Numbered from the stretch's first letter, positions 14,030-61,104 are shown. The stretch is 64,000 bases of DNA from Thermoanaerobaculia bacterium (GCA_030429235.1 JAUIDB010000010.1:13334-77333), one strand, 5' to 3'. The notes: generated from the sequence alone by a model not told the origin. Program-made: numbers and translations.

Positions 14030-16819
14030 ATGAGGAACAACGGCAGGGTGCAATCTCGACGCCGGTTCCTTCACAGATTGGGGATTGCGTGGGCGCTGGC
14101 TGGACTGCTCGCCAGTGCGACCGGACTCAGGGCGGGTGAGTCGGCGCCTGCGGCGATGGCGGCTGATCTCGGCGAGATTCCAGGGTGGACGTTTCTCGAT
14201 GCGGCGCCCGGGGGCTTTCAGGAACTCGACGGGATCGTCTACTTCTTTGCGCATGACGGTGTTCACGGGCAGGAACTCTGGCGAACCGATCTGACGGAGG
14301 CCGGTACCTGGATGGTCGAGGACATCTGTCCTGGCTTCTGTCACGGCATGACCAATGGCCCGCCGATGGTTCAGAGCGGTGGGGCGCTGTATTTCTTCGC
14401 CGACGACGGGGGGTCCGGGGGGGAGCTGTGGACTTCGCGAGGTACGGCCGAGACAACTCGGATCGTTCGGGACTTGCAGGCCGGCCCGGCCTCCTCCGCT
14501 TGTGGTCAGTTGATCGAGTTCGGAGGCCAGGTCGTGTTCGGTGCTGACGACGGCATCCATGGCTGCGAACTCTGGGTCAAACCCTCTTCGTGGGCGGGAG
14601 TCCAGCTGCTGGTCGATGCAGTTCCCGGCGCCGACTCCGGGTTCTCGTCCGGTTATCGCCGTCTCTTTCCGCTCGACGATCAGCTTCTCTTCTGGTCGCA
14701 GGACTCTCTCTGGACGACGGACGGTACTCCGGCTGGAACCGAGAAGGTCACCGAGGTCGTGGCGAACCTCGACGTGCCTTGGTTTCACGACAACGGCCCA
14801 CGGGCCTTCGACGGCAGGTTGTTTTTTCAAGGCTGGGACGCAGTACATGGCTGGGAACTGTGGGCCACCGACGGAACCGCAGCGGGTACGGGTCTGGTTG
14901 CGGACCTGGTCGCCGGTAGCGGCAGCAGTTCTCCGGACGACTTCGTGGTGCACGCCAGCCAACTCTGGTTCGCAGCCCGGGGCGAGGACCAGGACGGGGA
15001 ACTGTGGCGGAGCGATGGGACCTCGACGGGTACTGCGTTTGTCGCCGATGCGGACTGGGGTCCCCTGGGGAGTACCCCCGCTGGCGTCCTCTACGTGGTG
15101 CACAACGGAGTCCAGAGCGAGCTAAGGATCGCCGACGGGAGTCAGGTGAACACACTGGTCAGCGTAGAGGATGTTTACTTCTACTTCCTCTATCCTCGTC
15201 GACAGCTCGATGGTGGGGTCTTCCTGGCGCTGAACGCGGGGCAAACCGGTCCGGAGCCCTGGATCTCCGAAGGCACTCCCGAGACCACGCGGCTTCTCGC
15301 CGACATCTACCAGGGCGAGGAGGGTTCCATGTTCCTTCCTCTGGACACCGCAATCCAGCTCTCGACGGGAGAGATCCTGTTCAAGGCCTATTCCCCCGAG
15401 ATCGACTACTCGCCCTGGGTCAGCGATCAGACGACGGCTGGCACCCGCCGAATCAAGCGGATCGACGATCAAGTTTCGGCCGGGTATCCGGGACGACGAC
15501 TCCTCTATTCCAGCTTGGCCCCGATCGGACCACGATGCCTGACGAGTCGATACTCTCTGGAGTACAACCGCGAGGAGGCGTGGTCCTCGGCCGGAGACCC
15601 AGCGACGGTGGCTAGGATTCCCGTCCACCAGGGGCCTGGCGCCACGGTGCTTCAGGCAGATCCCGGACCTACTCCTGCCACTCGTTCCCGCGCCATTTTG
15701 AGAGTCCACGGGGAAGAGGGACCCAGCCTGTGGGGCACGGACGGTACGGTTCAGGGAACCGAGGAGATCACCGCGGCTTTCGGTGCGACGAGTCTGGGGC
15801 TCGAACGTTTCGTGGCGACTCCAGATCGCGTCTGGATCCAGAACCACGATCGGGTCTGGAGTACCGATGGAACCCTGGCCGGAACGGTGTGGGTTCCCTC
15901 CTGGAACCAGGTCAGAGACGCTGCCGTCGTCTCTGGCCGCACCTACCTGGCGCTCGGCAACAGCGGGACCGGAGTAGAACTCTGGCTTCAGCACCAAGGG
16001 GCAGCCCCGGTTCCGGTTCGCGACATCGAGCCAGGACCCGATAGTTCCACGCCATCGTGGCTGACGACCGGTTCCGAACCGAACCTCGGGGTCTTCTTCT
16101 TTGCCAGTACTACAGAGACTGGTCGCGAGCCCTGGTTCTCGGATGGAACTGCGGAGGGAACCTACCCGCTCGGGGACATCTTTCCTGGCGAGGAAGACTC
16201 TCGCGAGTTGACTGAGGAGCCCAATTCCGGCGGGGCCGTGGGGGCCTTCCTGGGGTCGACGCTCGTGTTCGCGGCCGATGACGGAGTCCACGGCAACGAA
16301 CTGTGGGCTTCGGATGGGAGTCCCGAGAGTGCGACTCTGCTTCTCGACCTCGTGCCGGGCAACGTGGGAAGCGAACCCGCTTGGTTTACCACCTTCGAGG
16401 ATCGGGTCTACTTCGTGGCCTCCACTCTGGAGCACGGACGAGAGCTCTGGCGGACCGACGGCACTCCGGAAGGCACCGAGATCGTGTTGGATCTGTTCCC
16501 GGGACGGCGTTCCGCTCTGCCCCACGATCTCTTGGTACGTGGTGACACTCTCTTCCTGGTCGCCGCCGACCCCGCCCACGGTTCCGAATTGTGGAGGCTC
16601 GACTCCGAGGGCCTCGAACTGCACCAGGACATCAATCCAGGGCCCGACTCGTCGTCACCGAGCTGGCTGGCGCTCGGTCAAGATCGACTCTGGTTCATGG
16701 CGACGGACGGTGTTCACGGGTTTGAACTCTGGAGCCTTCCGTTTGGGCTACTCTTTGCAGACGGCTTCGAATCTGGGGACGTCACCGCCTGGGGAGAAGC
16801 CGGGTCGGTCGTTCGCTAG
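14030..16819 (+). CDS. ELWxxDGT repeat protein (secreted), with C-terminal FADGFESGD tail
   Basis: Signal peptide, then more than 10 repeats such as GQELWRTD, GGELWTSRGTAETT, GWELWATDGTAAGT, DGELWRSDGTSTGT, GRELWRTDGTPEGT, GSELWRLD, GFELWSL. It ends LLFADGFESGDVTAWGEAGSVVR. Confidence 0.85.
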   Translation: MRNNGRVQSRRRFLHRLGIAWALAGLLASATGLRAGESAPAAMAADLGEIPGWTFLDAAPGGFQELDGIVYFFAHDGVHGQELWRTDLTEAGTWMVEDICPGFCHGMTNGPPMVQSGGALYFFADDGGSGGELWTSRGTAETTRIVRDLQAGPASSACGQLIEFGGQVVFGADDGIHGCELWVKPSSWAGVQLLVDAVPGADSGFSSGYRRLFPLDDQLLFWSQDSLWTTDGTPAGTEKVTEVVANLDVPWFHDNGPRAFDGRLFFQGWDAVHGWELWATDGTAAGTGLVADLVAGSGSSSPDDFVVHASQLWFAARGEDQDGELWRSDGTSTGTAFVADADWGPLGSTPAGVLYVVHNGVQSELRIADGSQVNTLVSVEDVYFYFLYPRRQLDGGVFLALNAGQTGPEPWISEGTPETTRLLADIYQGEEGSMFLPLDTAIQLSTGEILFKAYSPEIDYSPWVSDQTTAGTRRIKRIDDQVSAGYPGRRLLYSSLAPIGPRCLTSRYSLEYNREEAWSSAGDPATVARIPVHQGPGATVLQADPGPTPATRSRAILRVHGEEGPSLWGTDGTVQGTEEITAAFGATSLGLERFVATPDRVWIQNHDRVWSTDGTLAGTVWVPSWNQVRDAAVVSGRTYLALGNSGTGVELWLQHQGAAPVPVRDIEPGPDSSTPSWLTTGSEPNLGVFFFASTTETGREPWFSDGTAEGTYPLGDIFPGEEDSRELTEEPNSGGAVGAFLGSTLVFAADDGVHGNELWASDGSPESATLLLDLVPGNVGSEPAWFTTFEDRVYFVASTLEHGRELWRTDGTPEGTEIVLDLFPGRRSALPHDLLVRGDTLFLVAADPAHGSELWRLDSEGLELHQDINPGPDSSSPSWLALGQDRLWFMATDGVHGFELWSLPFGLLFADGFESGDVTAWGEAGSVVR

Positions 16820-51423: not shown

Positions 51424-54400
51424 ATGCCGCCACGTTTCTCCACCCTCCATCGGTCCGTCGCCGTTCCCGGTGCGGTCGCCTTGCTCGTTACCTGGCTCAT
51501 CCTCCTACTCGCGGCCCAGGCCGCGCTCGCCACAACCGCTCGCAAGGGGAAGAAGGCGAAAGCCGAAGCCGAAGCGGAGGAGGAAGAGTGGTCGGTCGAC
51601 GCCCCGCCGTACCCGACCTTCGAGGTGGCCATCGACGTCGAGGAGGGTACCTGGATGTCGCTCGATGTCAGTCCCGAAGGCGACGAGATCGTGTTCGATC
51701 TGCTCGGCGATCTCTACACGCTGCCCATCACCGGCGGGGAGGCCACCCGTATCAGTCAAGGGATCTCCTGGGACATGCATCCGACCTACAGCCCCGATGG
51801 CCAGCGCATCGCGTTCACCAGCGATCGGGCGGGGGGAGACAACATCTGGGTGATCGACCGCGACGGGAGCGATCCAGTGCAGGTGTCCGACGAGAGCTTC
51901 CGACTGCTGAACAGCCCGGCCTGGAGCCCCGACGGCGAGTACATCGCGGCTCACAAGCACTTCACGTCGCAGCGGTCGCTCGGAGCCGGTGAGATCTGGC
52001 TCTACCATCGGAGCGGATCCGGCGGGTTGCAGATGACCGAGCGACGGAACGACCAGAAGGACCTCGGCGAACCCGCCTTCTCGCCCGATGGGCGGTATCT
52101 CTACTACTCCCACGACGCCACGCCGGGCGACACCTTCGAGTACAGCAAGGACTCGAACGGTCAGATCTACGCAATCTACCGCATGGACCGCGAGACGGGG
52201 CGCGTCGAGTCCCTGGTTTCCGGGGCGGGCGGAGCGGTACGACCGACCCCCTCGCCGGACGGCAGGCTGCTGGCGTTCGTGCGCCGGGTCGACTTCGTGA
52301 GCACCCTCTTTCTCAAGGACCTCGAGTCGGGTCAGGAGTGGCCGCTCTATTCACCCCTCGAACGAGACATGCAGGAGACCTGGGCCATCCACGGGGTGTA
52401 TCCCTCGATGGCTTGGACCCCGGACAGCCAGGAGATCGTGTTCTGGGCCAAGGGCAAGATCCATCGGCTGGACGTCGAGACCCAGGAGTACCACGAGATC
52501 CCCTTCCACGTGGCGGACTCGAGGCAGGTGGCGCAGGCACGACGGCGGCCCATCGAGGTCCACCCCGAGGCCACCGACGTGAGGATGTTGCGGTGGCTGA
52601 CCGCCTCACCGACCGGCGACCGCGTCGTCTACCAGGCCCTGGGATACCTCTGGGTCCAGGAACTTCCGAACGGCGAGCCTCAACGGCTTACGGCCCAGGA
52701 AGCGCACTGGGAGTACTACCCGGCCTTCTCGCGCGATGGGAAGTGGATCGCCTACACCACCTGGTCGGACGACGAACTGGGGACGGTGCGGATTGTCGCC
52801 GCCAGCGGCGGGGAAAGCCAGGTGGTCAGCGACCGCCCGGGACACTACGTCGAACCCGAGTTCTCGCCCAGCGGGGAAGCGCTGATCTTTCGCCGAACCA
52901 GCGGCGGCTACCTGCGAACTCCGACCTGGTCGCAAGACGAGGGGATCTACCGGATCGAGTTGGGGATGTTCGGAGAGTCGGGACCGGCGGAGTTGGTAAC
53001 TCGCGACGGTTGGCAGGCGCACTTCGGCGCCGAGGAGGACCGGATTTACCTGCTGCGCGCCTCCGGAGCCGACAGCCGAGACCTGGTCTCGGTCGATCTG
53101 TCGGGCGAAGACGAACGGACCCACGCTAGCGGCGGGTTCGTGAGCGAGTACCGGGTGTCTCCCGACAGCCTTTGGGTGGCGTGGCGAGAGCACTATCAGG
53201 CCTACCTGGCCGCCATGCCCCGGATCGGACGATCGATCAGCGTCGCCCCTGGGGCCAAGGCGATGCCCACGGCTTCACTGAGCAAGAACGCGGGGGAGCA
53301 CCTCCACTGGTCGGCTGACGGGGAGACCGTCTACTGGTCCCTGGGATCGCAGCTCTTCGATCGCTCGCGGTCGGAGCTCTTCGCCTTTGCTCCCGGTGCC
53401 CCGGACGAGTTGCCAGAACCCCCCGAGACGGGGCGGGACTTCGGGTTCGAGGTGCCGAGCGACGTGCCCACGGGGACCGTAGCCTTCATCGGCGGCAAGG
53501 TCATCACCATGCGGGGAGACGAGATCCTGGACCCCGGAACCGTGGTCGTGGAGGGCAACCGGATCCTGGCCGTCGGTCCGAGCGACGAGGTCGAGGTGCC
53601 GGCTGACGCCCACGAGGTCGATGCCACGGGGAAGGTCCTGATGCCGGGGCTGGTCGACGTGCACTGGCATGGTGCCTTCGCCAGCGAAGAGATCGTGCCC
53701 CAGCAGAACTGGGCGACGTATGCCAGCCTGGCGTTCGGAGTCACCACGGTCCATGACCCGTCGAACGACACCTCCGAGGTGTTCGCCGCCGCCGAGCTCC
53801 AGCGCAGCGGAGCGATCACCGCCCCCCGGATCTTCTCGACCGGGGTGATCATCTACGGGGCGAAGGCGTCGGTTCATGCTCCGATCGATAGCCTGGACGA
53901 CGCCCGTCGCCACCTGAAGCGACTGGCGGCCGCCGGTGCGTTCAGTGTCAAGAGCTACAACCAACCGCGGCGGGATCAGCGGCAGCAGGTGATCGAAGCG
54001 TCGCGGGAACTCGGCATGCTGGTGGTGCCCGAGGGCGGTTCGACCTTCATGCACAACCTCACGATGATCATCGACGGTCATACCGGCATCGAGCACTCCG
54101 TACCGGTCGCGGCAATCTACGACGACGTCGCGCAGCTATGGAGTGCTACCGAGACCGGCTACACCCCAACTCTCGGGGTCGGATACGGCGGGATCTGGGG
54201 CGAACGCTACTGGTACCAGCACACCGAGGTGTGGAAGAACGAGCGGCTGCTGAACTTCGTACCCCGGCGCCTGATCGATCCCGTGGCGCGGCGACGGATG
54301 ATGGCGCCCGAGAAGGAGTACAACCACTTCAACAACGCGCGGGTGGCAGCCCAGCTCCAGGATCTCGGAGTTCCGGTGGCGGTGGGAGCCCACGGTCAGC

Positions 54401-54774
54401 GGGAAGGGCTGGCGGCGCATTGGGAGATCTGGATGTTCGAACAGGGAGGAATGACGCCCCACGAAGCCCTGCGCGCAGGGACTCTCGACGGCGCCCGCTA
54501 CCTGGGGATGGACCACGAGATCGGCTCGCTGGAGGCGGGAAAACTCGCCGATCTGCTGGTGCTCGCCGCCGACCCGCTCGCCGACCTCCGCAACAGCGAG
54601 TCGGTCGAGTCGGTGATGGTCAACGGCCGGCTCTACGATGCCATGACCATGGAGCAGATCGGCAACCACCCGAGTCCGGCCCCGAGCTTCTTCTTCTCCT
54701 CCGAACCCGCGTCGGGGATGCACTGCGCGGGAGCGGCCTGCGCGGGGCCGAGTCACGCTCGCTGCGAACACTGA
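51424..54774 (+). CDS. Secreted PD40/TolB-like beta-propeller(s) fused to a C-terminal amidohydrolase domain
   Basis: Signal peptide. WD40-like PD40 repeats (HPTYSPDGQRIAFTSDRAGGDNIWV, SPAWSPDGEYIA, EPAFSPDGRYLYYS, RPTPSPDGRLLAF, YPAFSRDGKWIAY, EPEFSPSGEALIF). Amidohydrolase motifs VLMPGLVDVHWHG, EGGSTFMH, GHTGIEHS, AVGAHG. Confidence 0.85.
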   Translation: MPPRFSTLHRSVAVPGAVALLVTWLILLLAAQAALATTARKGKKAKAEAEAEEEEWSVDAPPYPTFEVAIDVEEGTWMSLDVSPEGDEIVFDLLGDLYTLPITGGEATRISQGISWDMHPTYSPDGQRIAFTSDRAGGDNIWVIDRDGSDPVQVSDESFRLLNSPAWSPDGEYIAAHKHFTSQRSLGAGEIWLYHRSGSGGLQMTERRNDQKDLGEPAFSPDGRYLYYSHDATPGDTFEYSKDSNGQIYAIYRMDRETGRVESLVSGAGGAVRPTPSPDGRLLAFVRRVDFVSTLFLKDLESGQEWPLYSPLERDMQETWAIHGVYPSMAWTPDSQEIVFWAKGKIHRLDVETQEYHEIPFHVADSRQVAQARRRPIEVHPEATDVRMLRWLTASPTGDRVVYQALGYLWVQELPNGEPQRLTAQEAHWEYYPAFSRDGKWIAYTTWSDDELGTVRIVAASGGESQVVSDRPGHYVEPEFSPSGEALIFRRTSGGYLRTPTWSQDEGIYRIELGMFGESGPAELVTRDGWQAHFGAEEDRIYLLRASGADSRDLVSVDLSGEDERTHASGGFVSEYRVSPDSLWVAWREHYQAYLAAMPRIGRSISVAPGAKAMPTASLSKNAGEHLHWSADGETVYWSLGSQLFDRSRSELFAFAPGAPDELPEPPETGRDFGFEVPSDVPTGTVAFIGGKVITMRGDEILDPGTVVVEGNRILAVGPSDEVEVPADAHEVDATGKVLMPGLVDVHWHGAFASEEIVPQQNWATYASLAFGVTTVHDPSNDTSEVFAAAELQRSGAITAPRIFSTGVIIYGAKASVHAPIDSLDDARRHLKRLAAAGAFSVKSYNQPRRDQRQQVIEASRELGMLVVPEGGSTFMHNLTMIIDGHTGIEHSVPVAAIYDDVAQLWSATETGYTPTLGVGYGGIWGERYWYQHTEVWKNERLLNFVPRRLIDPVARRRMMAPEKEYNHFNNARVAAQLQDLGVPVAVGAHGQREGLAAHWEIWMFEQGGMTPHEALRAGTLDGARYLGMDHEIGSLEAGKLADLLVLAADPLADLRNSESVESVMVNGRLYDAMTMEQIGNHPSPAPSFFFSSEPASGMHCAGAACAGPSHARCEH

Positions 54775-54782
54775 AACTCGAG

Positions 54783-54809
54783 GGAACCTCGGCCCGCGGG
54801 TCTGCGTTC
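54783..54809 (+). promoter_or_regulatory. ECF-type promoter-like motif upstream of the ECF sigma gene
   Basis: GGAAC-N17-CGTTC, ~55 nt upstream of the TTG start at 54862. This pattern fits typical autoregulated ECF promoters. Confidence 0.35.
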
Positions 54810-54861
54810 TTTGAGATAGGGCCACTTCGGAGGCCGCCGATCGACAAGGACACGACACGCT

Positions 54862-55449
54862 TTGGATGACCTGACACTCGTAGAACGTTGCCGACTCGGC
54901 GACGACATCGCCTGGGAGGCACTCGTGCGGCGCTATCAGCACCGGGTGTTCGGGGTCGCCTTGCACTATCTACGGAATCGAGAGGATGCCCAGGACGCAG
55001 CCCAGGAGATCTTCGTCAAGGTCTACCGCGGGCTGGGGAAACTGGAGCCGGGGCGCGCCTTTCTGCCCTGGTTGCTGCGCGTCGCCCGCAACGGTTGCAT
55101 CGACCGCATTCGACGGCGCAAGGTCCGAACCCCCGAGATCGAAGTGCCAGTCGAAGATTGCTACGACCTGTCGGCCGACGATCCCACTCCCGAGGACCGT
55201 TCACTACTCAGCGGGCGGCAGGCTCTGCTGTACCAGGCGTTGGGCCAGATCAGCGACAACCATCGAGAGCTGATCCTGCTCAAGGAGATCCAGGAGATGG
55301 AGATTCGTGAGATCGCGGATCTGCTCGACCTGCCGCTGGGAACGGTCAAGTCCCGTTCCAACCGCGCCCGGCTGGAACTCGCACGGGCGGTGCGCTCGCT
55401 CGAAACGGGCCAGGCACGCAACCCGGCGGTACAGGAGGTGGCACCATGA
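54862..55449 (+). CDS. ECF-type RNA polymerase sigma-70 family factor
   Basis: Region 2 (DAQDAAQEIFVKVYRGL...WLLRVARNGCIDRIRRR) and region 4 (ELILLKEIQEMEIREIADLLDLPLGTVKSRSNRARLEL). Apparent TTG start. Confidence 0.85.
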   Translation: MDDLTLVERCRLGDDIAWEALVRRYQHRVFGVALHYLRNREDAQDAAQEIFVKVYRGLGKLEPGRAFLPWLLRVARNGCIDRIRRRKVRTPEIEVPVEDCYDLSADDPTPEDRSLLSGRQALLYQALGQISDNHRELILLKEIQEMEIREIADLLDLPLGTVKSRSNRARLELARAVRSLETGQARNPAVQEVAP

Positions 55450-56246
55450 TCTGCTCGGATTTCGAGGGGCGTCTGGAGGCACTCGCAGAGGGCCGCCTCG
55501 GCGACCGTGCCGCGCAGGACTGCCGAGAGCACGCGGCCCGTTGCTCGGCTTGTTCCGAGTTGCTCTTCCTAGCGGGTCTCGGGCCCACCGAGGGGTCCGT
55601 GGTGGATCTCACGCCGGCGGTACTGGCGGCCACCAGTGGTTCCCTCTGCGAAGCGGTCCAGGGGCAACTGGCGGACGTCGAGTCTGGGGTCGGAGTTGCC
55701 GGAGCGGCCACCTACGACGAGGCGTTGGCGTCGCACCTGGACCACTGCCCGGAGTGCGAGGCGATCGCCGGTGTGCTCCACGGGTTGCCGCGGGAACTCC
55801 CCGCGCTGGCCGAGGTCCGGGCGCCGTACGGTTTCGTCGCCGCCGTACTCCGGCGCACCCTGCCGCCGACGACTCGCTGGCGACGGCGTTGCGCCACCGC
55901 GTGGCAGGATTGGGTCCGGCGGCCACGCTTCGCTACCGAACTGGCCTACGCGCTCACCGTCGCGCTATTGATCCTGGTCGGCAATCCGGCCACCCCCCTG
56001 TCGGCGATGTCGGATACGGCGCGTCGGGCGCTGCCGCGCGGCGAAGACCTGGCCCAACGAGTCGCTCCCCTGGAGAGCAAGCTCGAGCAGTATGGGGAGT
56101 CGATCGGCCACTCGCCGGCGGTGCGGGTGTTCGTGGCGGGGGCGGAGTGGAGTCAGGACCGGGTGGACGATCTGTGGCAGAGCACGTCGAGGGCCCTGTC
56201 CGACCTCGAGGCCGGCCTGACCGAGCTGTTCGGTCCCGGCCGCTAA
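55446..56246 (+). CDS. Transmembrane zinc-finger (zf-HC2/ZAS-like) anti-sigma factor with two HxxxCxxC motifs
   Basis: ATGA overlap with the sigma gene. HAARCSAC and HLDHCPEC motifs. One TM helix (LAYALTVALLILVG). Confidence 0.75.
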   Translation: MICSDFEGRLEALAEGRLGDRAAQDCREHAARCSACSELLFLAGLGPTEGSVVDLTPAVLAATSGSLCEAVQGQLADVESGVGVAGAATYDEALASHLDHCPECEAIAGVLHGLPRELPALAEVRAPYGFVAAVLRRTLPPTTRWRRRCATAWQDWVRRPRFATELAYALTVALLILVGNPATPLSAMSDTARRALPRGEDLAQRVAPLESKLEQYGESIGHSPAVRVFVAGAEWSQDRVDDLWQSTSRALSDLEAGLTELFGPGR

Positions 56247-56298
56247 CCGTCCGCAGTCCTCCGGACGCGTCCCTGTCGTCGACGACCTCGGGATCCGC

Positions 56299-56324
56299 GC
56301 GAACTCTTCGCGGTCGCTGACGTA
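56299..56324 (+). promoter_or_regulatory. ECF-type promoter-like motif upstream of the sulfatase-fold lipoprotein gene
   Basis: GCGAAC-N16-CGTA, 66 nt upstream of ATG 56390. It is followed by a 7-bp-arm inverted repeat, GATTTCC-N8-GGAAATC (56326-56347). Confidence 0.3.
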
Positions 56325-56389
56325 TGATTTCCTGAGTCTAGGAAATCAGCGACCACCGTGGCGTCGGCTCACGGTACGGAGGAGGCCGA

Positions 56390-58906
56390 ATGCGTAGAGG
56401 ATCGACCAGGGCGGCGACAGGTTCCACTCTTCTGGCCTTGGCCGCGGCGCTGGGTGGCTTGGCATGGCTGGCCTGCACTCCCGACGCTCCTGAGCCGGCC
56501 CCGGTCCCCCCTCTCCGCTTCCACTTGGCGAGCCAACTGAACACCGCGACGGTCGTGGCGCCGACGGCTCCCGACAGCACACCCTTGGACTGGCAGGGCC
56601 GCGATCTCGAGACGACGTGGACGCTGCTGGGCAGCGAATCGGTGCCTCACTTTGCGACCCTGGCTCCGACCTTCACCGACGAGGGAGTCGATCTCGACTT
56701 CGGGGTGCCGGCACAGCCGCGGGGACCGCTGCGGGTGGGTGGACTGCGCATCGACCTCGAAGCGAGCGACTTCGGTCGCTGGGATACCGTGCTGGTCGAG
56801 GCCCGTTCGAGTGATCGTTTTGCGGGAGTCACGGTGGCGGTCAACGTCGACGACGACGAGGCGCTGCCGGGTTTCATGCGGTTCTTCGCGTCGACTGGAA
56901 ACTGTCCCCCGATCTTCAACGATGGTTCGATCCAGACCTACGCGATTCCGATCAGCCTGGCTGAGAAGCAGACCCGCCCCGACCAACTGAAAAGCCTCGC
57001 GGTGCTCTTCGCGGCGCCCGGCGAGGCTACGATCCAGGTCCGGTCGGTCCGTTTGGTACCGCACGGCGCCTCGTACCCGGAAGAAGCCGGCGTCCTGCGC
57101 ACCGAGCGCGGGGGCACCACCCGCGAGGCGCTCTATCTACGGACACCAGGCGAGATCTCCCTCGAGGTGCCAGCCATGGGGGAGAGCCGGCTCGATTTCG
57201 GCCTCACCGCCGAGGTCGACCGCCCCGTCACGTATCGTTTGTTGCGAAGGTTCGGAGATTCCGAGGAGGTGCTGTTCGAGCGCACCGTCGAGGCGGCAGA
57301 GAGCTGGGAACAGTTCAGCCAACCGCTGAACCTGAACGAACCGACGCAGCTCGTCCTGGCGGCCGAGGCCGCGGAGCCCGGGACGGTCGCGCTGTGGGGT
57401 TCTCCGGTGGTGAGTTCCACTCCGCCGCCCGGCGGGCCACCCAACGTCATCTTCTACGTCATCGATGGCGGCGACGCCAACCTGATGAGCCTCTACGAGT
57501 ACGGCCGACCGACCACTCCCTACCTCGAGAGTCTGGCCAACGAGGGGGTTCTGTTTGGGCGGGCGTACTCCAATGCAACTTGGACCCAACCGTCGACGGT
57601 CTCGTTCCTCACCTCGCTGCAGCACAGTGTGCTGGGTGGCTTGCGTCGCGGCATCCACTCGACCCCGGTGCCGACGGCGGCGGTGACCATGGCCGAGCAC
57701 TTCCGTCAGGGCGGTTACACCACGGCTTCCTTTACCGCCAACCCCAACGCCGGTCGGATGGTCGGTACCGATCGGGGGGTCGACTGGATGCGGGATGCGG
57801 CGACCGAGAACCACTCGACTTCGTCCCTGACCCTGCACGAGGAGTTCTGGAAGTACCGCGATGCCTACCCGCAGGGGCCGTTCTTCGTCCACTTCCAGAC
57901 CACTGACGTCCACGAACCGAACCACCCCGAGGAGCCCTTTGCCGGCACCTTCGTCGGCGCGGAGCAGTTGGCCGAGTTCGAGGAGTGGGACAATCGGCTC
58001 TGGGGCGCCGTCTTCCCCTGGTTCGGACGCACCTCGGTGGTCGACCTCTACGACCGGGGTATCGAGGCCAGCGGAGTGGATCGCTACGCCTACTTCGCGG
58101 TCCGTAATGGGCTCTACGACGAGACCATGCTCCACCAGGACCACGCCCTCGAGCAGTTCGTGCAGGAACTCCGGGACCGGGGTGAGTGGGAGAACACGAT
58201 CCTGGTGATCGGCGCTGACCACGGACATCCGGCGGGGACCTTCGCCCGCTTCGGTCGTGGACTCCTCGATCCCCAGCCCGAACCCTGGCAGGGCGCCTTG
58301 GCAGATGCCTACGCCACTCGCGTACCCTTCCTCGTGGTGTGGCCGGGTCAGTTGGAGGGTGGTCGGCGGATCGACCGCCCCGTGTCGATGCTCGACGTGT
58401 TGCCCACGGTGCTGGAACTCGCCGGCCTGCCGGAGCCGGAAGTCTTACAGGGGCAGTCGCTGGCGCCGCTGCTGCGTGGGGGGGAGATCGAGGCTCGTCC
58501 GGTGATCCTGGACGAGTTCCGCGTCGACGAAACCAGCGGCGAGCTGATCGGAAATCTCGAGATCATCGACGGCCGCTGGGCCGCTTCGCTCGAGATCGGC
58601 CCCACTCCGGAGGAGACGGCGCCAGGGTTCGGTCGCTACCAGGTGCCGGCTGGAGGCCGTTGGGGGGCCGTTCATCCCTTCTTCCCCGACGTTCCGAGGC
58701 TGTTGCTCTACGACCTCGAGGAAGATCCCTTCACGACCCGGGCCGTCAACGAAGAGCATCCGGACCTGGTGCGCAAATACACGCGGTTGCTGCAGGAACA
58801 CTGGCAGGCGCACCAGGCTCTCGCCACCCGATTCAGCGAGGCGGGTGAGGTCACCCTGGATCCGGAACAGCTCGAGCAGCTCAAGGCACTGGGCTACATC
58901 CAATAG
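56390..58906 (+). CDS. Sulfatase-fold lipoprotein with an unknown ~330-aa N-terminal domain; Thr replaces the formylglycine residue
   Basis: Lipobox LGGLAWLACT. PNVIFYVIDGGDA. The active-site region reads WTQPSTVSFLTS where type I sulfatases have C/S-x-P-x-R-xxxLTG. GADHGHP is present. GGAGGAGG RBS. Confidence 0.8.
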   Translation: MRRGSTRAATGSTLLALAAALGGLAWLACTPDAPEPAPVPPLRFHLASQLNTATVVAPTAPDSTPLDWQGRDLETTWTLLGSESVPHFATLAPTFTDEGVDLDFGVPAQPRGPLRVGGLRIDLEASDFGRWDTVLVEARSSDRFAGVTVAVNVDDDEALPGFMRFFASTGNCPPIFNDGSIQTYAIPISLAEKQTRPDQLKSLAVLFAAPGEATIQVRSVRLVPHGASYPEEAGVLRTERGGTTREALYLRTPGEISLEVPAMGESRLDFGLTAEVDRPVTYRLLRRFGDSEEVLFERTVEAAESWEQFSQPLNLNEPTQLVLAAEAAEPGTVALWGSPVVSSTPPPGGPPNVIFYVIDGGDANLMSLYEYGRPTTPYLESLANEGVLFGRAYSNATWTQPSTVSFLTSLQHSVLGGLRRGIHSTPVPTAAVTMAEHFRQGGYTTASFTANPNAGRMVGTDRGVDWMRDAATENHSTSSLTLHEEFWKYRDAYPQGPFFVHFQTTDVHEPNHPEEPFAGTFVGAEQLAEFEEWDNRLWGAVFPWFGRTSVVDLYDRGIEASGVDRYAYFAVRNGLYDETMLHQDHALEQFVQELRDRGEWENTILVIGADHGHPAGTFARFGRGLLDPQPEPWQGALADAYATRVPFLVVWPGQLEGGRRIDRPVSMLDVLPTVLELAGLPEPEVLQGQSLAPLLRGGEIEARPVILDEFRVDETSGELIGNLEIIDGRWAASLEIGPTPEETAPGFGRYQVPAGGRWGAVHPFFPDVPRLLLYDLEEDPFTTRAVNEEHPDLVRKYTRLLQEHWQAHQALATRFSEAGEVTLDPEQLEQLKALGYIQ

Positions 58907-59024
58907 CGGGGATCATCTCCGTGGCGAGACTTCCGGCCGAGGAGTGGACGGAACCTCGGCGGGGTCAGCTGCGTCTTCTCTGTGAACCGGCACTCAGGTG
59001 CCCAACCCCATGAGGAGAGACGAG

Positions 59025-59675
59025 ATGTCCGAAACACCGATTTCCGATCAGGTCCCATCAGAGGAGGCGCCAGAGAGTGCAGCGCAGAGTCAAGCCCCGC
59101 CGGCCGCCGCGGCCGCGCCGAGGTCTGCTTCCTATCGAACCACCCCGACGTACTCCACCGTGGTCGCCGATGACCCGCGCCGCAAGTCCCCGCTGCTGGC
59201 TTCCTTTCTGTCGGCGATGCCGGGCCTGGGTCAGGTCTACGTGGGCTACTACCAACGGGGCTTCGCCCACCTGCTGACGGTGGCTGGCACGATCGCCGTT
59301 CTCAACACGCGTTCGCTGCACAACAACGAGGCCCTGGTCCCGGCGGTGGCCTTCTTCCTGGTCTTCTTCTGGCTCTACAACATCATCGATGCCGGCCGGC
59401 GGGCGTCCTTCTACAACTACGCCCTGGCCGGAGGAACCGACATCAACCTGCCTCAGGATCTCGGGGCACCGATGAGTGGTTCGATCGCCGGTGGCGTGGT
59501 GGCCATCGCGGTGGGTGCCCTCCTCCTGAGCCACACCCTGCTCGACTTCTCGATGGACTGGCTCGAGGAGTGGTGGCCGATGGCGATCATCGGGTTCGGC
59601 GTGTTCCTGGTCTACCGGGCGCGACAGGACCAGGCGAAGAACTCGACCGCAGCCCACGATCTCGAAGGCTACTGA
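59025..59675 (+). CDS. Multi-pass membrane protein, function unknown
   Basis: ATG 59025 is preferred because GAGGAG lies 7 nt upstream. Four hydrophobic helices. PGLGQVYVGYYQRG motif after a disordered N-terminus. Confidence 0.55.
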   Translation: MSETPISDQVPSEEAPESAAQSQAPPAAAAAPRSASYRTTPTYSTVVADDPRRKSPLLASFLSAMPGLGQVYVGYYQRGFAHLLTVAGTIAVLNTRSLHNNEALVPAVAFFLVFFWLYNIIDAGRRASFYNYALAGGTDINLPQDLGAPMSGSIAGGVVAIAVGALLLSHTLLDFSMDWLEEWWPMAIIGFGVFLVYRARQDQAKNSTAAHDLEGY

Positions 59676-59766
59676 GCCCGGGAGCGTCTGACCTCGGCTG
59701 CGAGGCACCGGGTCCCGAAGGGCTCGGTGCCTCGTGCTTGGTGCGGGGACGAGGTTGGGCGCCGGC

Positions 59767-61104
59767 TCAGAAGAAGCGGAGCCAGACGTAGAGGTGGGCG
59801 ATGGCCAGAGTCATCAGCAGGACCGGCATGCCCCAGGCCATGAAGCGCGTGAAGGAGATCTTGTGGCCGGCGCGTTCGGCGATACCGAGCACCGCCACGT
59901 TGGCGGAGGCTCCGATCGGGGTCCCGTTGCCTCCCAGGCAGGAACCCAGGGCCAGCGACCACCAGACCGGCAGGATCGAGGGGTGTTGGAGGGTCTGGAC
60001 GCCGCTCGGGGCCGCGCTGCCGACTACGGTCTCCGACATCTCGGCGACCAACGGTGCCATGGTGGCGACGTACGGGATGTTGTCGACGAAGGCCGAGAGG
60101 ATGCCGGAGAACCAGAGCATCACGTAGCTGGTGGTGGCGGTCGAGGCCAGGCTGGGGCTCGTCTCGGCGATCACCACCGCCGAGAGCTGCTCGACGAATC
60201 CCACCTTCACGATTCCGCCGATCACGATGTAGAGCCCGACGAAGAAGAAGATCGTAGGCCACTCGACCGCGGCGAACACCTCGTGCGGATCTTCCTTCGA
60301 AATCAGCAAGAGGAGGGCGGCTCCGGCGAGGGCGACGGCCGCGGGTTCGATGTGGGTCACGCTGTGGAACATGAACCCAGCGGTGACCAGGAGCAGCACC
60401 AGAATCGACTTCTTGACCAACGAGGGATCGCGGATCAGCTTCCCTTCGTTCATCCCGAGGATGTGTTGACGTTTGTCCTCGTCGACCCTCATGCGTCCGA
60501 AGAAGGCCCAGAGCACGACGAGCAGGGCTCCCATCATGACGATGACGACGGGACCGAGGTTGACGACGAAGTCGAGGAACCCCAGTTTCGAGCGCGATGC
60601 GATCATCAGGTTCGGGGGGTCACCGATCAGCGTGGCGGTACCCCCGATGTTGGAGGCGAGAGCTTCGGCGATCAAGAAGGGCACCGGGTCGAGTTCCAGC
60701 TCGTCGGCAATCAGCAGTGTCACCGGGGCGAAGAGTAGGACAGTCGTTACGTTGTCGAGCAGGGCCGAGAAGAAGGCGGTGGCGATCACGAAGAGCACCA
60801 TGATCGGAAACGGCCGACCTCCGACGAGTTTGGCCATGCGCACCGCGCACCACTCGAAGGCGCCGCTCTTGCCCAGGATGTCGACGATCACCATCATGCC
60901 GATCAGGAGGAAGATCACGCCGTGATCGATCCCGAGTTCGGCGGAGTGGAAGGCCTCCTCCTGGGTCAAGAGGCCGAGTCCCAGCACCACGCCGGCGCCG
61001 AGGAGGGCGGCTTTGGTCTTGTGGACCTTTTCACTGACGATCAGGCCCAGCGTGGCGACAAAGGTCGCGCACGCCGTCCAGTAGGCCAAGCTTCCAGAGA
61101 GCAT
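59767..61104 (-). CDS. ArsB/NhaD-superfamily ion permease
   Basis: 445 aa with about 11-12 TM helices. FSALLDNVTTVLLFAPVTL and ASNIGGTATLIGDPPNLMI are motifs characteristic of the ArsB/NhaD permease family. Confidence 0.85.
   Translation of the reverse strand: MLSGSLAYWTACATFVATLGLIVSEKVHKTKAALLGAGVVLGLGLLTQEEAFHSAELGIDHGVIFLLIGMMVIVDILGKSGAFEWCAVRMAKLVGGRPFPIMVLFVIATAFFSALLDNVTTVLLFAPVTLLIADELELDPVPFLIAEALASNIGGTATLIGDPPNLMIASRSKLGFLDFVVNLGPVVIVMMGALLVVLWAFFGRMRVDEDKRQHILGMNEGKLIRDPSLVKKSILVLLLVTAGFMFHSVTHIEPAAVALAGAALLLLISKEDPHEVFAAVEWPTIFFFVGLYIVIGGIVKVGFVEQLSAVVIAETSPSLASTATTSYVMLWFSGILSAFVDNIPYVATMAPLVAEMSETVVGSAAPSGVQTLQHPSILPVWWSLALGSCLGGNGTPIGASANVAVLGIAERAGHKISFTRFMAWGMPVLLMTLAIAHLYVWLRFF

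Follow-up and report, generated by a model that had tools for sequence, protein, structure and literature searches.

Pairs of an extracytoplasmic function (ECF) sigma factor and its anti-sigma factor are the third major mode of signal transduction in bacteria, and the domains of anti-sigma factors have been treated as single modules. In SigW-RsiW, RpoE-RseA, and AlgU-MucA, a single-pass anti-sigma factor carries one N-terminal, cytoplasmic anti-sigma domain, and the sigma operon is autoregulated from an AAC/CGT-type promoter, an architecture that is generic for ECF sigma factors. Among the zinc-binding anti-sigma (ZAS) proteins, RsrA is soluble and redox-sensing, and ChrR and RslA have a single zinc site in the anti-sigma domain. 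Moreover, Bacillus subtilis has in sigM-yhdL-yhdK a three-gene ECF operon with an accessory membrane protein. Here we set against these systems a locus in a 64,000-nucleotide stretch of DNA from a Thermoanaerobaculia bacterium (GCA_030429235.1, JAUIDB010000010.1:13334-77333; hereafter the window, with positions counted from its first letter), where an ECF sigma gene is followed by genes for a membrane anti-sigma factor, a lipoprotein with a sulfatase fold, and a LiaI/LiaF-like membrane protein. The explanation that we prefer, and judge likely as a whole, is that sigma, anti-sigma, and membrane protein make up a conserved three-gene ECF module, and that the lipoprotein gene was inserted between the second and third of these in one lineage. 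The most novel element is the tandem zinc module, invariant in a large family of anti-sigma factors. Comparisons were made with a set of 35 related loci, L075 through L109, found via homologues of the anti-sigma factor or via the closest relative of the lipoprotein. The parts of the proposed module are as follows.

54783..54808, + strand: putative autoregulatory ECF promoter of the sigma operon, GGAACC-N16-CGTT (from related loci and a weight matrix)
54862..55449, + strand: ECF sigma factor, 195 amino acids, TTG start (MDD..., start identical in L075 and L078; from Pfam)
55446..56246, + strand: single-pass membrane anti-sigma factor, 266 amino acids, with tandem zf-HC2 (ZAS) modules
55452..55553, + strand: zinc module 1, residues 3-36, C3...H29xxxC33xxC36 (Pfam zf-HC2, 22.5 bits, and family profile)
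55647..55757, + strand: zinc module 2, residues 68-104, C68...H97xxxC101xxC104 (hhalign, profile, and Pfam in relatives)
55929..55979, + strand: transmembrane helix of the anti-sigma factor, residues 162-178 (AlphaFold2 model)
58950..58975, + strand: putative second sigma-type promoter, GGAACC-N16-CGTC, before the membrane-protein gene (weight matrix and related loci)
58998..59675, + strand: LiaI/LiaF-like polytopic membrane protein with four transmembrane segments (Pfam, identity, and tblastn)

The order ECF sigma, tandem-zinc-finger anti-sigma, LiaI/LiaF-like membrane protein is common to the 35 related loci. A tblastn search places the membrane-protein gene downstream in nearly all of them, and the window protein is 44-63% identical to the product of the gene that comes after the anti-sigma gene there. 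In L076-L109 this gene stands directly after the anti-sigma gene, usually with overlapping stop and start codons, and no lipoprotein gene is present; since these loci are collinear without it, the conserved unit would be sigma, anti-sigma, and membrane protein, and the lipoprotein gene would have been inserted. L075, which holds the closest relative of the lipoprotein (62% identity), has the order propeller-amidohydrolase, sigma, anti-sigma, lipoprotein, LiaI/LiaF-like gene, with the last of these inverted relative to the window arrangement, and L078 has the same upstream synteny as the window with the lipoprotein gene missing. An earlier reading of the window, made from the sequence alone (the sequence-only reading), had described a sigma gene at 54862..55449 overlapping a membrane anti-sigma gene by ATGA and a sulfatase-fold lipoprotein gene beginning 143 nucleotides beyond the anti-sigma stop; direct reading of the DNA bears out both the overlap and the gap. 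It overlooked the membrane-protein gene at 58998-59675 and the promoter before it at 58950-58975.

What sets the anti-sigma factor apart is that its zinc module occurs twice. The two HxxxCxxC motifs to which the sequence-only reading had drawn attention, HAARCSAC at residues 29-36 and HLDHCPEC at residues 97-104, are present and define the family. With the upstream cysteines they make two complete four-ligand sites, C3, H29, C33, and C36 in the first and C68, H97, C101, and C104 in the second, all of them invariant in a 78-sequence alignment. Exactly two HxxxCxxC motifs occur in 150 of 154 family sequences (listed representatives together with word-search matches), at median positions 29 and 97, and the single-motif exceptions lack the N-terminal module and appear to be N-terminally truncated. 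The family is large: in a hidden Markov model (HMM) search of 1.84 billion representatives, 469 proteins pass at E<=1e-30, a number that rises to 868 with the threshold relaxed to E<=1e-10, and at 50% identity the family comprises at least 469 clusters. Judging from the metagenome-assembled genome labels of the related loci, the module belongs mainly to Thermoanaerobaculia and other Acidobacteriota. In the window protein, Pfam zf-HC2 detects the first motif only, and that at a borderline score; in relatives both modules are detected. Aligned with each other by hhalign, modules 1 and 2 match with a probability of 97.3% (E 2e-11), and on this profile comparison the pair is an internal duplication.

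The class I ZAS arrangement, that is H-x3-C-x2-C with an upstream fourth ligand in a helical anti-sigma domain, is therefore found twice in this one protein. When the family profile is compared with the PDB, module 2 and the next helix cover the whole anti-sigma domain of RsiW (E 5e-5) and also match ChrR, and module 1 is aligned to the zinc regions of DdvA, RslA, and RsrA. RsiW is the top profile match, and RsiW and MucA are the top fold matches. We take module 2 to be the canonical class I anti-sigma domain, to which a zinc or thiol module, module 1, would have been added. The AlphaFold2 model (mean predicted local distance difference test score, pLDDT, 84.7; predicted template modelling score, pTM, 0.41) has two helical modules, two more helices, the transmembrane helix, and about 80 extracytoplasmic residues, also helical. 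Directly before the transmembrane helix lies R159-P160-R161-F162, in which R159 and P160 are invariant and R161 nearly so. The anti-sigma factors are about 35% identical, against 44-63% for the LiaF-like proteins. The factor thus resembles RsiW, RseA, and MucA in crossing the membrane once and in having its anti-sigma domain N-terminal and cytoplasmic, but differs from them in having two homologous zinc modules in tandem where they have one anti-sigma domain, and in an extracytoplasmic part of only about 80 residues of predicted helix. It shares with RsrA, ChrR, and RslA, to all three of which the profile matches, the H-x3-C-x2-C with its upstream Cys ligand; unlike RsrA it is membrane-bound, and unlike ChrR and RslA it has two zinc sites. 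No description of tandem or double ZAS anti-sigma factors was found in the searchable literature, which does not prove novelty, and the ECF classification literature mentions neither a tandem zinc finger, nor a LiaF context, nor a GGAACC-N16-CGTC promoter.

The Pfam matches of the sigma factor are Sigma70_r2 (PF04542, 72 bits) and Sigma70_r4_2 (PF08281, 40.5 bits); having only regions 2 and 4, with neither region 3 nor region 1.1, it falls in the ECF class (group 4), and it scores 101 bits against TIGR02937 sigma70-ECF, for which the cut-off is 42.9. The closest solved relatives are AlgU (6in7, 8z6g; E 2e-29), SigW (E 3e-23), and RpoE (E 2e-21), that is, the sigma factors of the three membrane systems named at the outset. 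Where it departs from those systems is in a GGAACC-N16-CGTC promoter, and in falling under the cut-off of every NCBIfam equivalog or subfamily model, the best being SigM and SigW at about 117 bits. As expected for an ECF sigma factor that is co-transcribed with its cognate anti-sigma and autoregulated from an AAC...CGT promoter, the two genes overlap at the ATGA and a conserved footprint that would be such a promoter precedes them.

The evidence for that promoter is comparative. A weight matrix was built from 36 distinct sites, all taken from loci other than the window, whose consensus is [GC]GAAC[CT]-N15/16-CGT[CT], and 128,000 window positions were scored with it. The site at 58950 ranks first, with 20.8 bits, and the site at 54783 third, with 15.1 bits. 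Where upstream DNA is available, the closer loci have GGAACC-N16-CGTC/T before sigma; among the more distant ones CGAACC takes the place of GGAACC, and one of them has a spacer one base shorter. The sequence-only reading had proposed an autoregulatory motif, GGAAC-N17-CGTTC at 54783-54809; it is there, and both the related loci and its matrix rank support autoregulation, such that the sigma gene is very probably under its own control. An equivalent site lies before the membrane-protein gene in most of the 35 loci, usually within the 3' end of the anti-sigma open reading frame. In the window the corresponding site at 58950-58975, GGAACCTCGGCGGGGTCAGCTGCGTC, is non-coding, and its first 11 bases are identical to those of the sigma promoter; in L075 the promoter has moved with the inverted membrane-protein gene and lies upstream of it on the other strand. 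The window contains 3 exact matches to GGAACC-N16-CGTY where 0.42 would be expected, a number that none of 100 shuffles attained, and the sigma-gene motif is far from a chance occurrence. These comparative footprints strongly support a sigma factor that controls both its own gene and that of the membrane protein.

Two further sites in the window deserve mention. The third exact match, GGAACC-N16-CGTC at 15903-15928, is inside an open reading frame of 929 amino acids (14030-16819), scores 8.1 bits, and is probably due to chance. On the minus strand, CGAACCTTCGCAACAAACGATACGTG at 57229-57254 is antisense within the lipoprotein gene and ranks fifth in the window with 14.3 bits; it could be a chance occurrence or an antisense promoter. 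In L076 (6709-6734), L079 (1306-1331), L081 (2385-2410), and other loci, GGAACC...GTTGCGTCTTGG in the 3' end of the anti-sigma gene encodes G-T...V-A-S-W, which is almost the sole conserved stretch in an otherwise variable periplasmic tail. Since the motif is also conserved in non-coding DNA, we read the conservation of this peptide as a consequence of the promoter, which would constrain the C-terminal sequence of the anti-sigma factor.

The third gene of the proposed module encodes the membrane protein. Pfam LiaI-LiaF-like_TM1 (PF18917) matches residues 164-204 with 31.6 bits, against a cut-off of 27, and PF22570 falls just below its cut-off of 27 with 25.6 bits; the N-terminal half of the protein has only weak matches, to DUF5683 and TM2. 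Translation may in fact begin at an ATG at 59010, or near 59025. Like LiaI and LiaF of the Bacillus envelope stress response, it has a C-terminal transmembrane hairpin of the PF18917 type and would be a membrane protein under stress control, here predicted from the promoter. However, Pfam finds no LiaF C-terminal domain in it, the 35 loci contain no LiaRS or LiaH genes, no PspA-like partner accompanies it, and control would be exerted by an ECF sigma factor here and is exerted by LiaR there. By gene order alone the module is also akin to sigM-yhdL-yhdK, in which sigma and anti-sigma are again followed by a small polytopic membrane protein, but here the third gene has its own sigma-type promoter and its product belongs to the LiaI/LiaF-like transmembrane family.

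The lipoprotein gene, on which the sequence-only reading had centered, presents a different picture. Its features, and those of the DNA before it, are the following.

56300..56324, + strand: degenerate ECF-like element, CGAACT-N15-CGTA (weight matrix)
56325..56348, + strand: 10-base-pair stem with a 4-nucleotide loop, a hairpin or palindrome abutting the CGTA (folding)
56390..58906, + strand: lipoprotein of 838 amino acids, with lipobox Cys29, two beta-sandwich domains, a sulfatase-fold domain, and an LxxLGYIQ tail
57581..57598, + strand: W398-T399-Q400-P401-S402-T403, in place of the sulfatase C/S-x-P-x-R (HMMER alignments and homologues)

A homologue search with the lipoprotein returned 653 matches, of which the best 120, all about 830-850 amino acids long and 52-62% identical over the full length, are the basis of the invariance counts given below. 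The homologues belong for the most part to Thermoanaerobaculia and other Acidobacteriota, to Gemmatimonadota, and to bins labelled Planctomycetota. The sequence-only reading had taken the gene to be a target of the sigma factor, but as a conserved target it did not survive comparison: linkage of lipoprotein and sigma genes is seen in 2 loci only, the window and L075, and the promoter that recurs among related loci precedes the membrane-protein gene. No sigma or anti-sigma gene was detected by tblastn, even at E<1, within 6 kb of the lipoprotein gene in any of 74 species-representative loci, and four further close homologues (58-61% identity) lie in four unrelated contexts, again with no sigma or anti-sigma gene nearby. 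An attempt to derive function from conserved neighbours in the 74 loci was abandoned, the largest cluster being an artefact of antisense open reading frames in GC-rich DNA; true neighbours are not conserved, except, in Gemmatimonadota, for paralogue arrays, NPP-type genes, and a sulfotransferase.

Scored in the same way as the two GGAACC sites, the element upstream of the lipoprotein gene is a weak candidate. The GCGAAC-N16-CGTA noted by the sequence-only reading at 56299-56324 exists, but as an ECF promoter it is weak, with 2.3 bits and a rank of 127 among the 128,000 positions, as against 15-21 bits for the two true sites; about 0.14 sites with that score are expected by chance on one strand of the 143-nucleotide spacer. 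Its counterpart in L075, AGAACC-N16-CGTA, fares better (9.7 bits, rank 4 of 23,856). Compared with ten true sites, both elements differ at the first G of GGAAC, which is C in the window and A in L075, both have GA or TA in place of the TG before CGT, and both have A after it. Of the 36 training sites, 35 have C after CGT and the remaining one has T; in the TG before it, the T is present in 31 and the G in 29. The proposal that the sigma factor directly drives the lipoprotein gene from this element, and that the gene product is an envelope-modifying transferase of the EptA/LtaS kind, is in our view unlikely, but the first half of it has several points in its favor. The element has ECF architecture (AAC, 16-17 nucleotides, CGT), and its counterpart in the other locus with this arrangement stands at the same position with that high matrix rank. 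Distant relatives, too, have CGAAC and a spacing one base shorter among their genuine sites. In its spacer the element is similar to the promoter of the membrane-protein gene in the window, a likeness of weak significance (shuffle p ~0.015) that hints at promoter duplication. Finally, since the element does not occur upstream of the gene in 54 other loci, it would have appeared together with the sigma neighborhood. The second half of the proposal is taken up below with the protein.

Next to this stands the converse possibility, that the lipoprotein gene is an unrelated passenger, controlled on its own by a CGTA-specific ECF sigma factor or by a repressor bound to the 10-4-10 palindrome, and that its adjacency to the sigma operon has no regulatory meaning. 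We take this to be possible, though on the doubtful side. The context of the gene differs in nearly every genome, which is what would be expected of a passenger, and the -10-like CGTA is not the CGTC of the module; published B. subtilis work has the fourth -10 base discriminating sigma-W from sigma-X. A palindrome over the predicted start is, moreover, typical of an operator. The inverted repeat had been given in the sequence-only reading as having 7-base-pair arms at 56326-56347; it is indeed there, but the arms are longer, forming a 10-base-pair stem at 56325-56348 with 9 Watson-Crick pairs and 1 G-U pair (folding free energy -12.1 kcal/mol, z = -4.3). L075 has a 10-base-pair stem with a 4-nucleotide loop at the same place (z -3.4) but of different sequence, and against a passenger stands the difference in palindrome half-sites between the two loci. 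The structure after the CGTA could be a 5'-terminal stabilizing hairpin, an operator, or an element of the 5' untranslated region. In L038 (5832-5856), a Thermoanaerobaculia bin, TGAACC...GCTGACGTA precedes a lipoprotein orthologue with no sigma gene nearby and no hairpin, and the 9-mer at its -10-like position is identical to that of the window element; a site of this kind where no sigma gene is near speaks for independent control. Across orthologues, however, GAAC...CGTA is not enriched, with 2 of 50 loci against a background of 1.3%, and a sigma-type motif occurs upstream in 0 of the same 50, which is the background level; neither was found in 4 more loci. A further difficulty for a passenger is read-through. 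Because no intrinsic terminator and no sigma-70-type promoter was detected in a scan of 54700-59800, transcription from the sigma promoter could run on into the lipoprotein gene, and in view of the missing terminator after the anti-sigma gene it would be likely to do so. All told, we give sigma control of the lipoprotein gene, whether direct or by read-through, roughly even odds.

Some observations on orthologous loci stand apart from this question. In Gemmatimonadota (whole loci L049, L051, L052, and L061; L042 8758-13340; L058 8513-9130) 3-6 paralogues of the gene stand in tandem, and two PF01663 NPP-type phosphodiesterase genes lie on their flanks together with a small gene of the sulfotransferase family. 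In a metagenomic contig (L112, 1345-1764) a BlaI/Penicillinase_R-family repressor gene precedes a lipoprotein orthologue, that is, a different regulator of the envelope-stress type. The last 50 or so residues of the lipoprotein (window 58816-58906), with their invariant terminal L-x-x-L-G-Y-I-Q, also end an unrelated Ser/Thr-kinase/TPR open reading frame in Gemmatimonadota (L058, 378-3167); the shared ending suggests a C-terminal module that is mobile, perhaps a tag for sorting or interaction.

As to the protein, the sequence-only reading had it as a sulfatase-fold lipoprotein with Thr for Cys/Ser and Thr for Arg in the formylglycine motif, and every part of this stands. Pfam Sulfatase matches residues 351-679 with 138 bits, followed by SGSH_C, and no Pfam family matches residues 30-345 even at E<=1. 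The AlphaFold2 model (pLDDT 83, pTM 0.83) shows beta-sandwiches at about 40-343, a sulfatase-fold core, and a C-terminal helical tail. The signal peptide ends in L-A-W-L-A-C29, as a lipoprotein signal should, with Cys in 114 of the 120 homologues and [AGS] at -1. HMMER alignment with solved sulfatases puts T399 at the nucleophile Cys, T403 at the Arg, H508 at the His of the PH.P region, and D610-H611 at the D-[NH]-G metal ligands. The segment in question, WTQPSTVSFLTS, comprises residues 398-409; W398, T399, S402, and T403 occur in every one of the 120 homologues, while Q400 is shared by 119 of them and P401 by 100. D359, H501, H508, D610, H611, and H613 are likewise invariant in the 120, as are the polar residues H412, R420, H423, N451, N453, and D506. 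A canonical C/S-x-P-x-R motif, whose discovery would have changed this picture, was sought: [CS]x[PA]xR occurs nowhere in the lipoprotein, which has only two Cys residues, C29 of the lipobox and C172. The sulfatase signature GY-x-[TSCV]-x3-G-K, with its sulfate-binding Lys and His (PMC5066984), is here G442-Y-T-T-A-S-F-T-A-N-P-N, in which G-Y-x-T is kept, G-K has become T-A, and the Lys is lost; N451-P-N453 is invariant in a 43-sequence alignment. The Lys that follows DHG in sulfatases has no aligned counterpart, and D359 is followed by Gly, not by the Asp/Gln of [DE]-[DQ]. D610-H611-G612 is invariant and is the His variant seen in phosphonate monoester hydrolases (PMH) and EfAS.

Read from its aligned residues, the lipoprotein is not a formylglycine sulfatase, since it has Thr at the nucleophile position and so cannot form formylglycine. 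This step is standard, and correct: in about half of the Pfam PF00884 seed, according to the SulfAtlas paper, Thr occupies that position, Thr cannot yield formylglycine, and Thr-type PF00884 proteins are mis-annotated as sulfatases (PMC5066984). The Mn-dependent arylsulfatase of Enterococcus was considered as a Thr-type relative and ruled out, as it uses Cys61/formylglycine.

The argument from the Thr nucleophile against a sulfatase thus holds; its extension to EptA/LtaS-like envelope modification is weakened. In favor of a transferase, the Thr nucleophile and the D/T/D/H metal site are common to LtaS and EptA, and the acidic/Thr/Asp/His arrangement of the LtaS/EptA/OpgB proteins is found here, by alignment and fold similarity, in D359, T399, D610, and H611. 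But LtaS, EptA/MCR-1, OpgB, and PbgA have an N-terminal domain of several transmembrane segments that handles the lipid donor, whereas the lipoprotein has only a signal peptide, a single N-terminal hydrophobic helix ending at lipobox Cys29, and no multi-pass membrane domain. Similarity to LtaS/EptA-type proteins is marginal (NCBIfam E 1e-7 to 4e-4, far under the cut-offs), and by both sequence and fold the closest relatives are soluble S1 sulfatases and PMH. The arrays of 3-6 paralogues beside NPP-type genes look, moreover, like substrate-diverse hydrolases and not like a housekeeping transferase. A Thr-nucleophile phosphoester hydrolase is probably what the protein is, and an EptA/LtaS-type transferase is less likely; because it would be lipid-anchored and soluble, of sulfatase/PMH descent, found in NPP-adjacent arrays, and with no fixed partner, an extracytoplasmic phosphoester hydrolase fits better. 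With the S1 sulfatases and PMH it shares the N-terminal catalytic subdomain and the SGSH_C subdomain, the Asp...Asp-His metal ligands of PMH, SpAS2, and EfAS, and the general-acid His of the PH.P region (H508). It differs from them in its invariant Thr for the nucleophile Cys/Ser, its invariant Thr for the Arg of C-x-P-x-R, an additional N-terminal pair of beta-sandwiches of 300 residues, and a lipid anchor.

It might also be supposed that the lipoprotein is no enzyme at all, but a ligand-binding protein or sensor built on an inactive sulfatase fold, comparable to the periplasmic domain of PbgA/YejM, perhaps signalling to the anti-sigma factor. A weak NCBIfam match to LapC/YejM/PbgA and the loss of the sulfate-binding residues agree with this. 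We consider it very improbable, since metal ligands, Thr, and a dense set of polar residues that are invariant in 120 homologues form the pattern of a live active site, and in other genomes the lipoprotein is not linked to the anti-sigma factor.

Several considerations weigh against the explanation that we prefer, a conserved three-gene module with an inserted lipoprotein gene. The word "insertion" rests on 3 related loci, in which the gene may equally have been lost from L078 or gained by the other two. The lipoprotein gene has its upstream element at the same position in the window and in L075, and the absence of such an element before orthologues elsewhere is some evidence that the element has been recruited to the window sigma. 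The conservation of the promoter embedded in the anti-sigma gene could in part reflect the encoded peptide G-T...V-A-S-W; to this it may be answered that the motif is non-coding upstream of sigma, and that the membrane-protein copy is non-coding in the window and in L075. Finally, all of the promoters and regulatory links proposed here are deduced from conservation of sequence.

With these points in mind, the system may be pictured as follows. A single-pass anti-sigma factor would keep an ECF sigma factor of the RpoE/AlgU/SigW kind at the membrane. The cytoplasmic part of this anti-sigma factor is a tandem duplication of a zinc-binding module, the second copy of which, with the next helix, would correspond to a complete class I domain. 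Once released, the sigma factor would transcribe from two GGAACC-N16-CGTC promoters, as the comparative footprints suggest: the first that of its own gene, giving positive autoregulation, and the second that of the LiaI/LiaF-like protein with four transmembrane segments, which would be the system's conserved output. A lipoprotein gene would have been inserted between the anti-sigma and membrane-protein genes in the lineage of the window and one relative. This gene may join the regulon by read-through, no terminator being detectable, and may also use the weak, degenerate GAAC-N16/17-CGTA element followed by a conserved hairpin. The lipoprotein itself would derive from the S1 sulfatase/PMH branch of the alkaline-phosphatase superfamily and would have kept one metal site (D359, T399, D610, H611) and the general acid H508, while the Arg and Lys of sulfatases have been lost. 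Thr399 would most likely be a metal-activated nucleophile with a phosphate monoester or diester as its extracytoplasmic substrate, making the protein a soluble, lipid-anchored hydrolase.

Beyond the lipoprotein gene, the surroundings of the module are shared with few loci. Directly upstream of the sigma promoter in the window (51424-54774) lies a gene for a fusion of 1116 amino acids, in which a TolB/Tricorn-like beta-propeller is joined to an amidohydrolase. It is syntenic only in the window, L075, and L078 (71-74% identity), and in L075 and L078 HEAT-repeat and HD-domain genes lie further upstream of it.

A bolder extension, which we offer tentatively and hold to be rather doubtful, is that the tandem-ZAS anti-sigma factors are an undescribed and widespread class, always accompanied by their own ECF sigma factor and a LiaI/LiaF-like protein, in which a canonical, membrane-anchored domain has gained a second zinc/thiol module by duplication, serving either to integrate two inputs or to form a clamp with one sigma domain per module, and that the lipoprotein was captured by promoter duplication in one lineage. 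With two inputs, an envelope signal would enter through the part of the protein that spans the membrane and reaches into the periplasm, and the extra module would contribute a redox or metal signal from the cytoplasm.

The significance of the locus is twofold. The lipoprotein family, with more than 650 matches, is labelled "sulfatase" or "arylsulfatase A-like" in databases though its members are unable to be one, and this matters for the inferences about sulfur and phosphorus cycles that are drawn from metagenomes; in the window, the gene illustrates how a nomadic gene may be slotted into an existing regulon. The anti-sigma factors, for their part, are a large family from little-studied phyla that combines an invariant duplicated zinc module, a fixed membrane-protein partner, and a clear promoter consensus. 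The sigma factor and its predicted promoter may be of use as an orthogonal pair for synthetic biology, and the family offers a ready system for asking what a second zinc or thiol site does to anti-sigma function.

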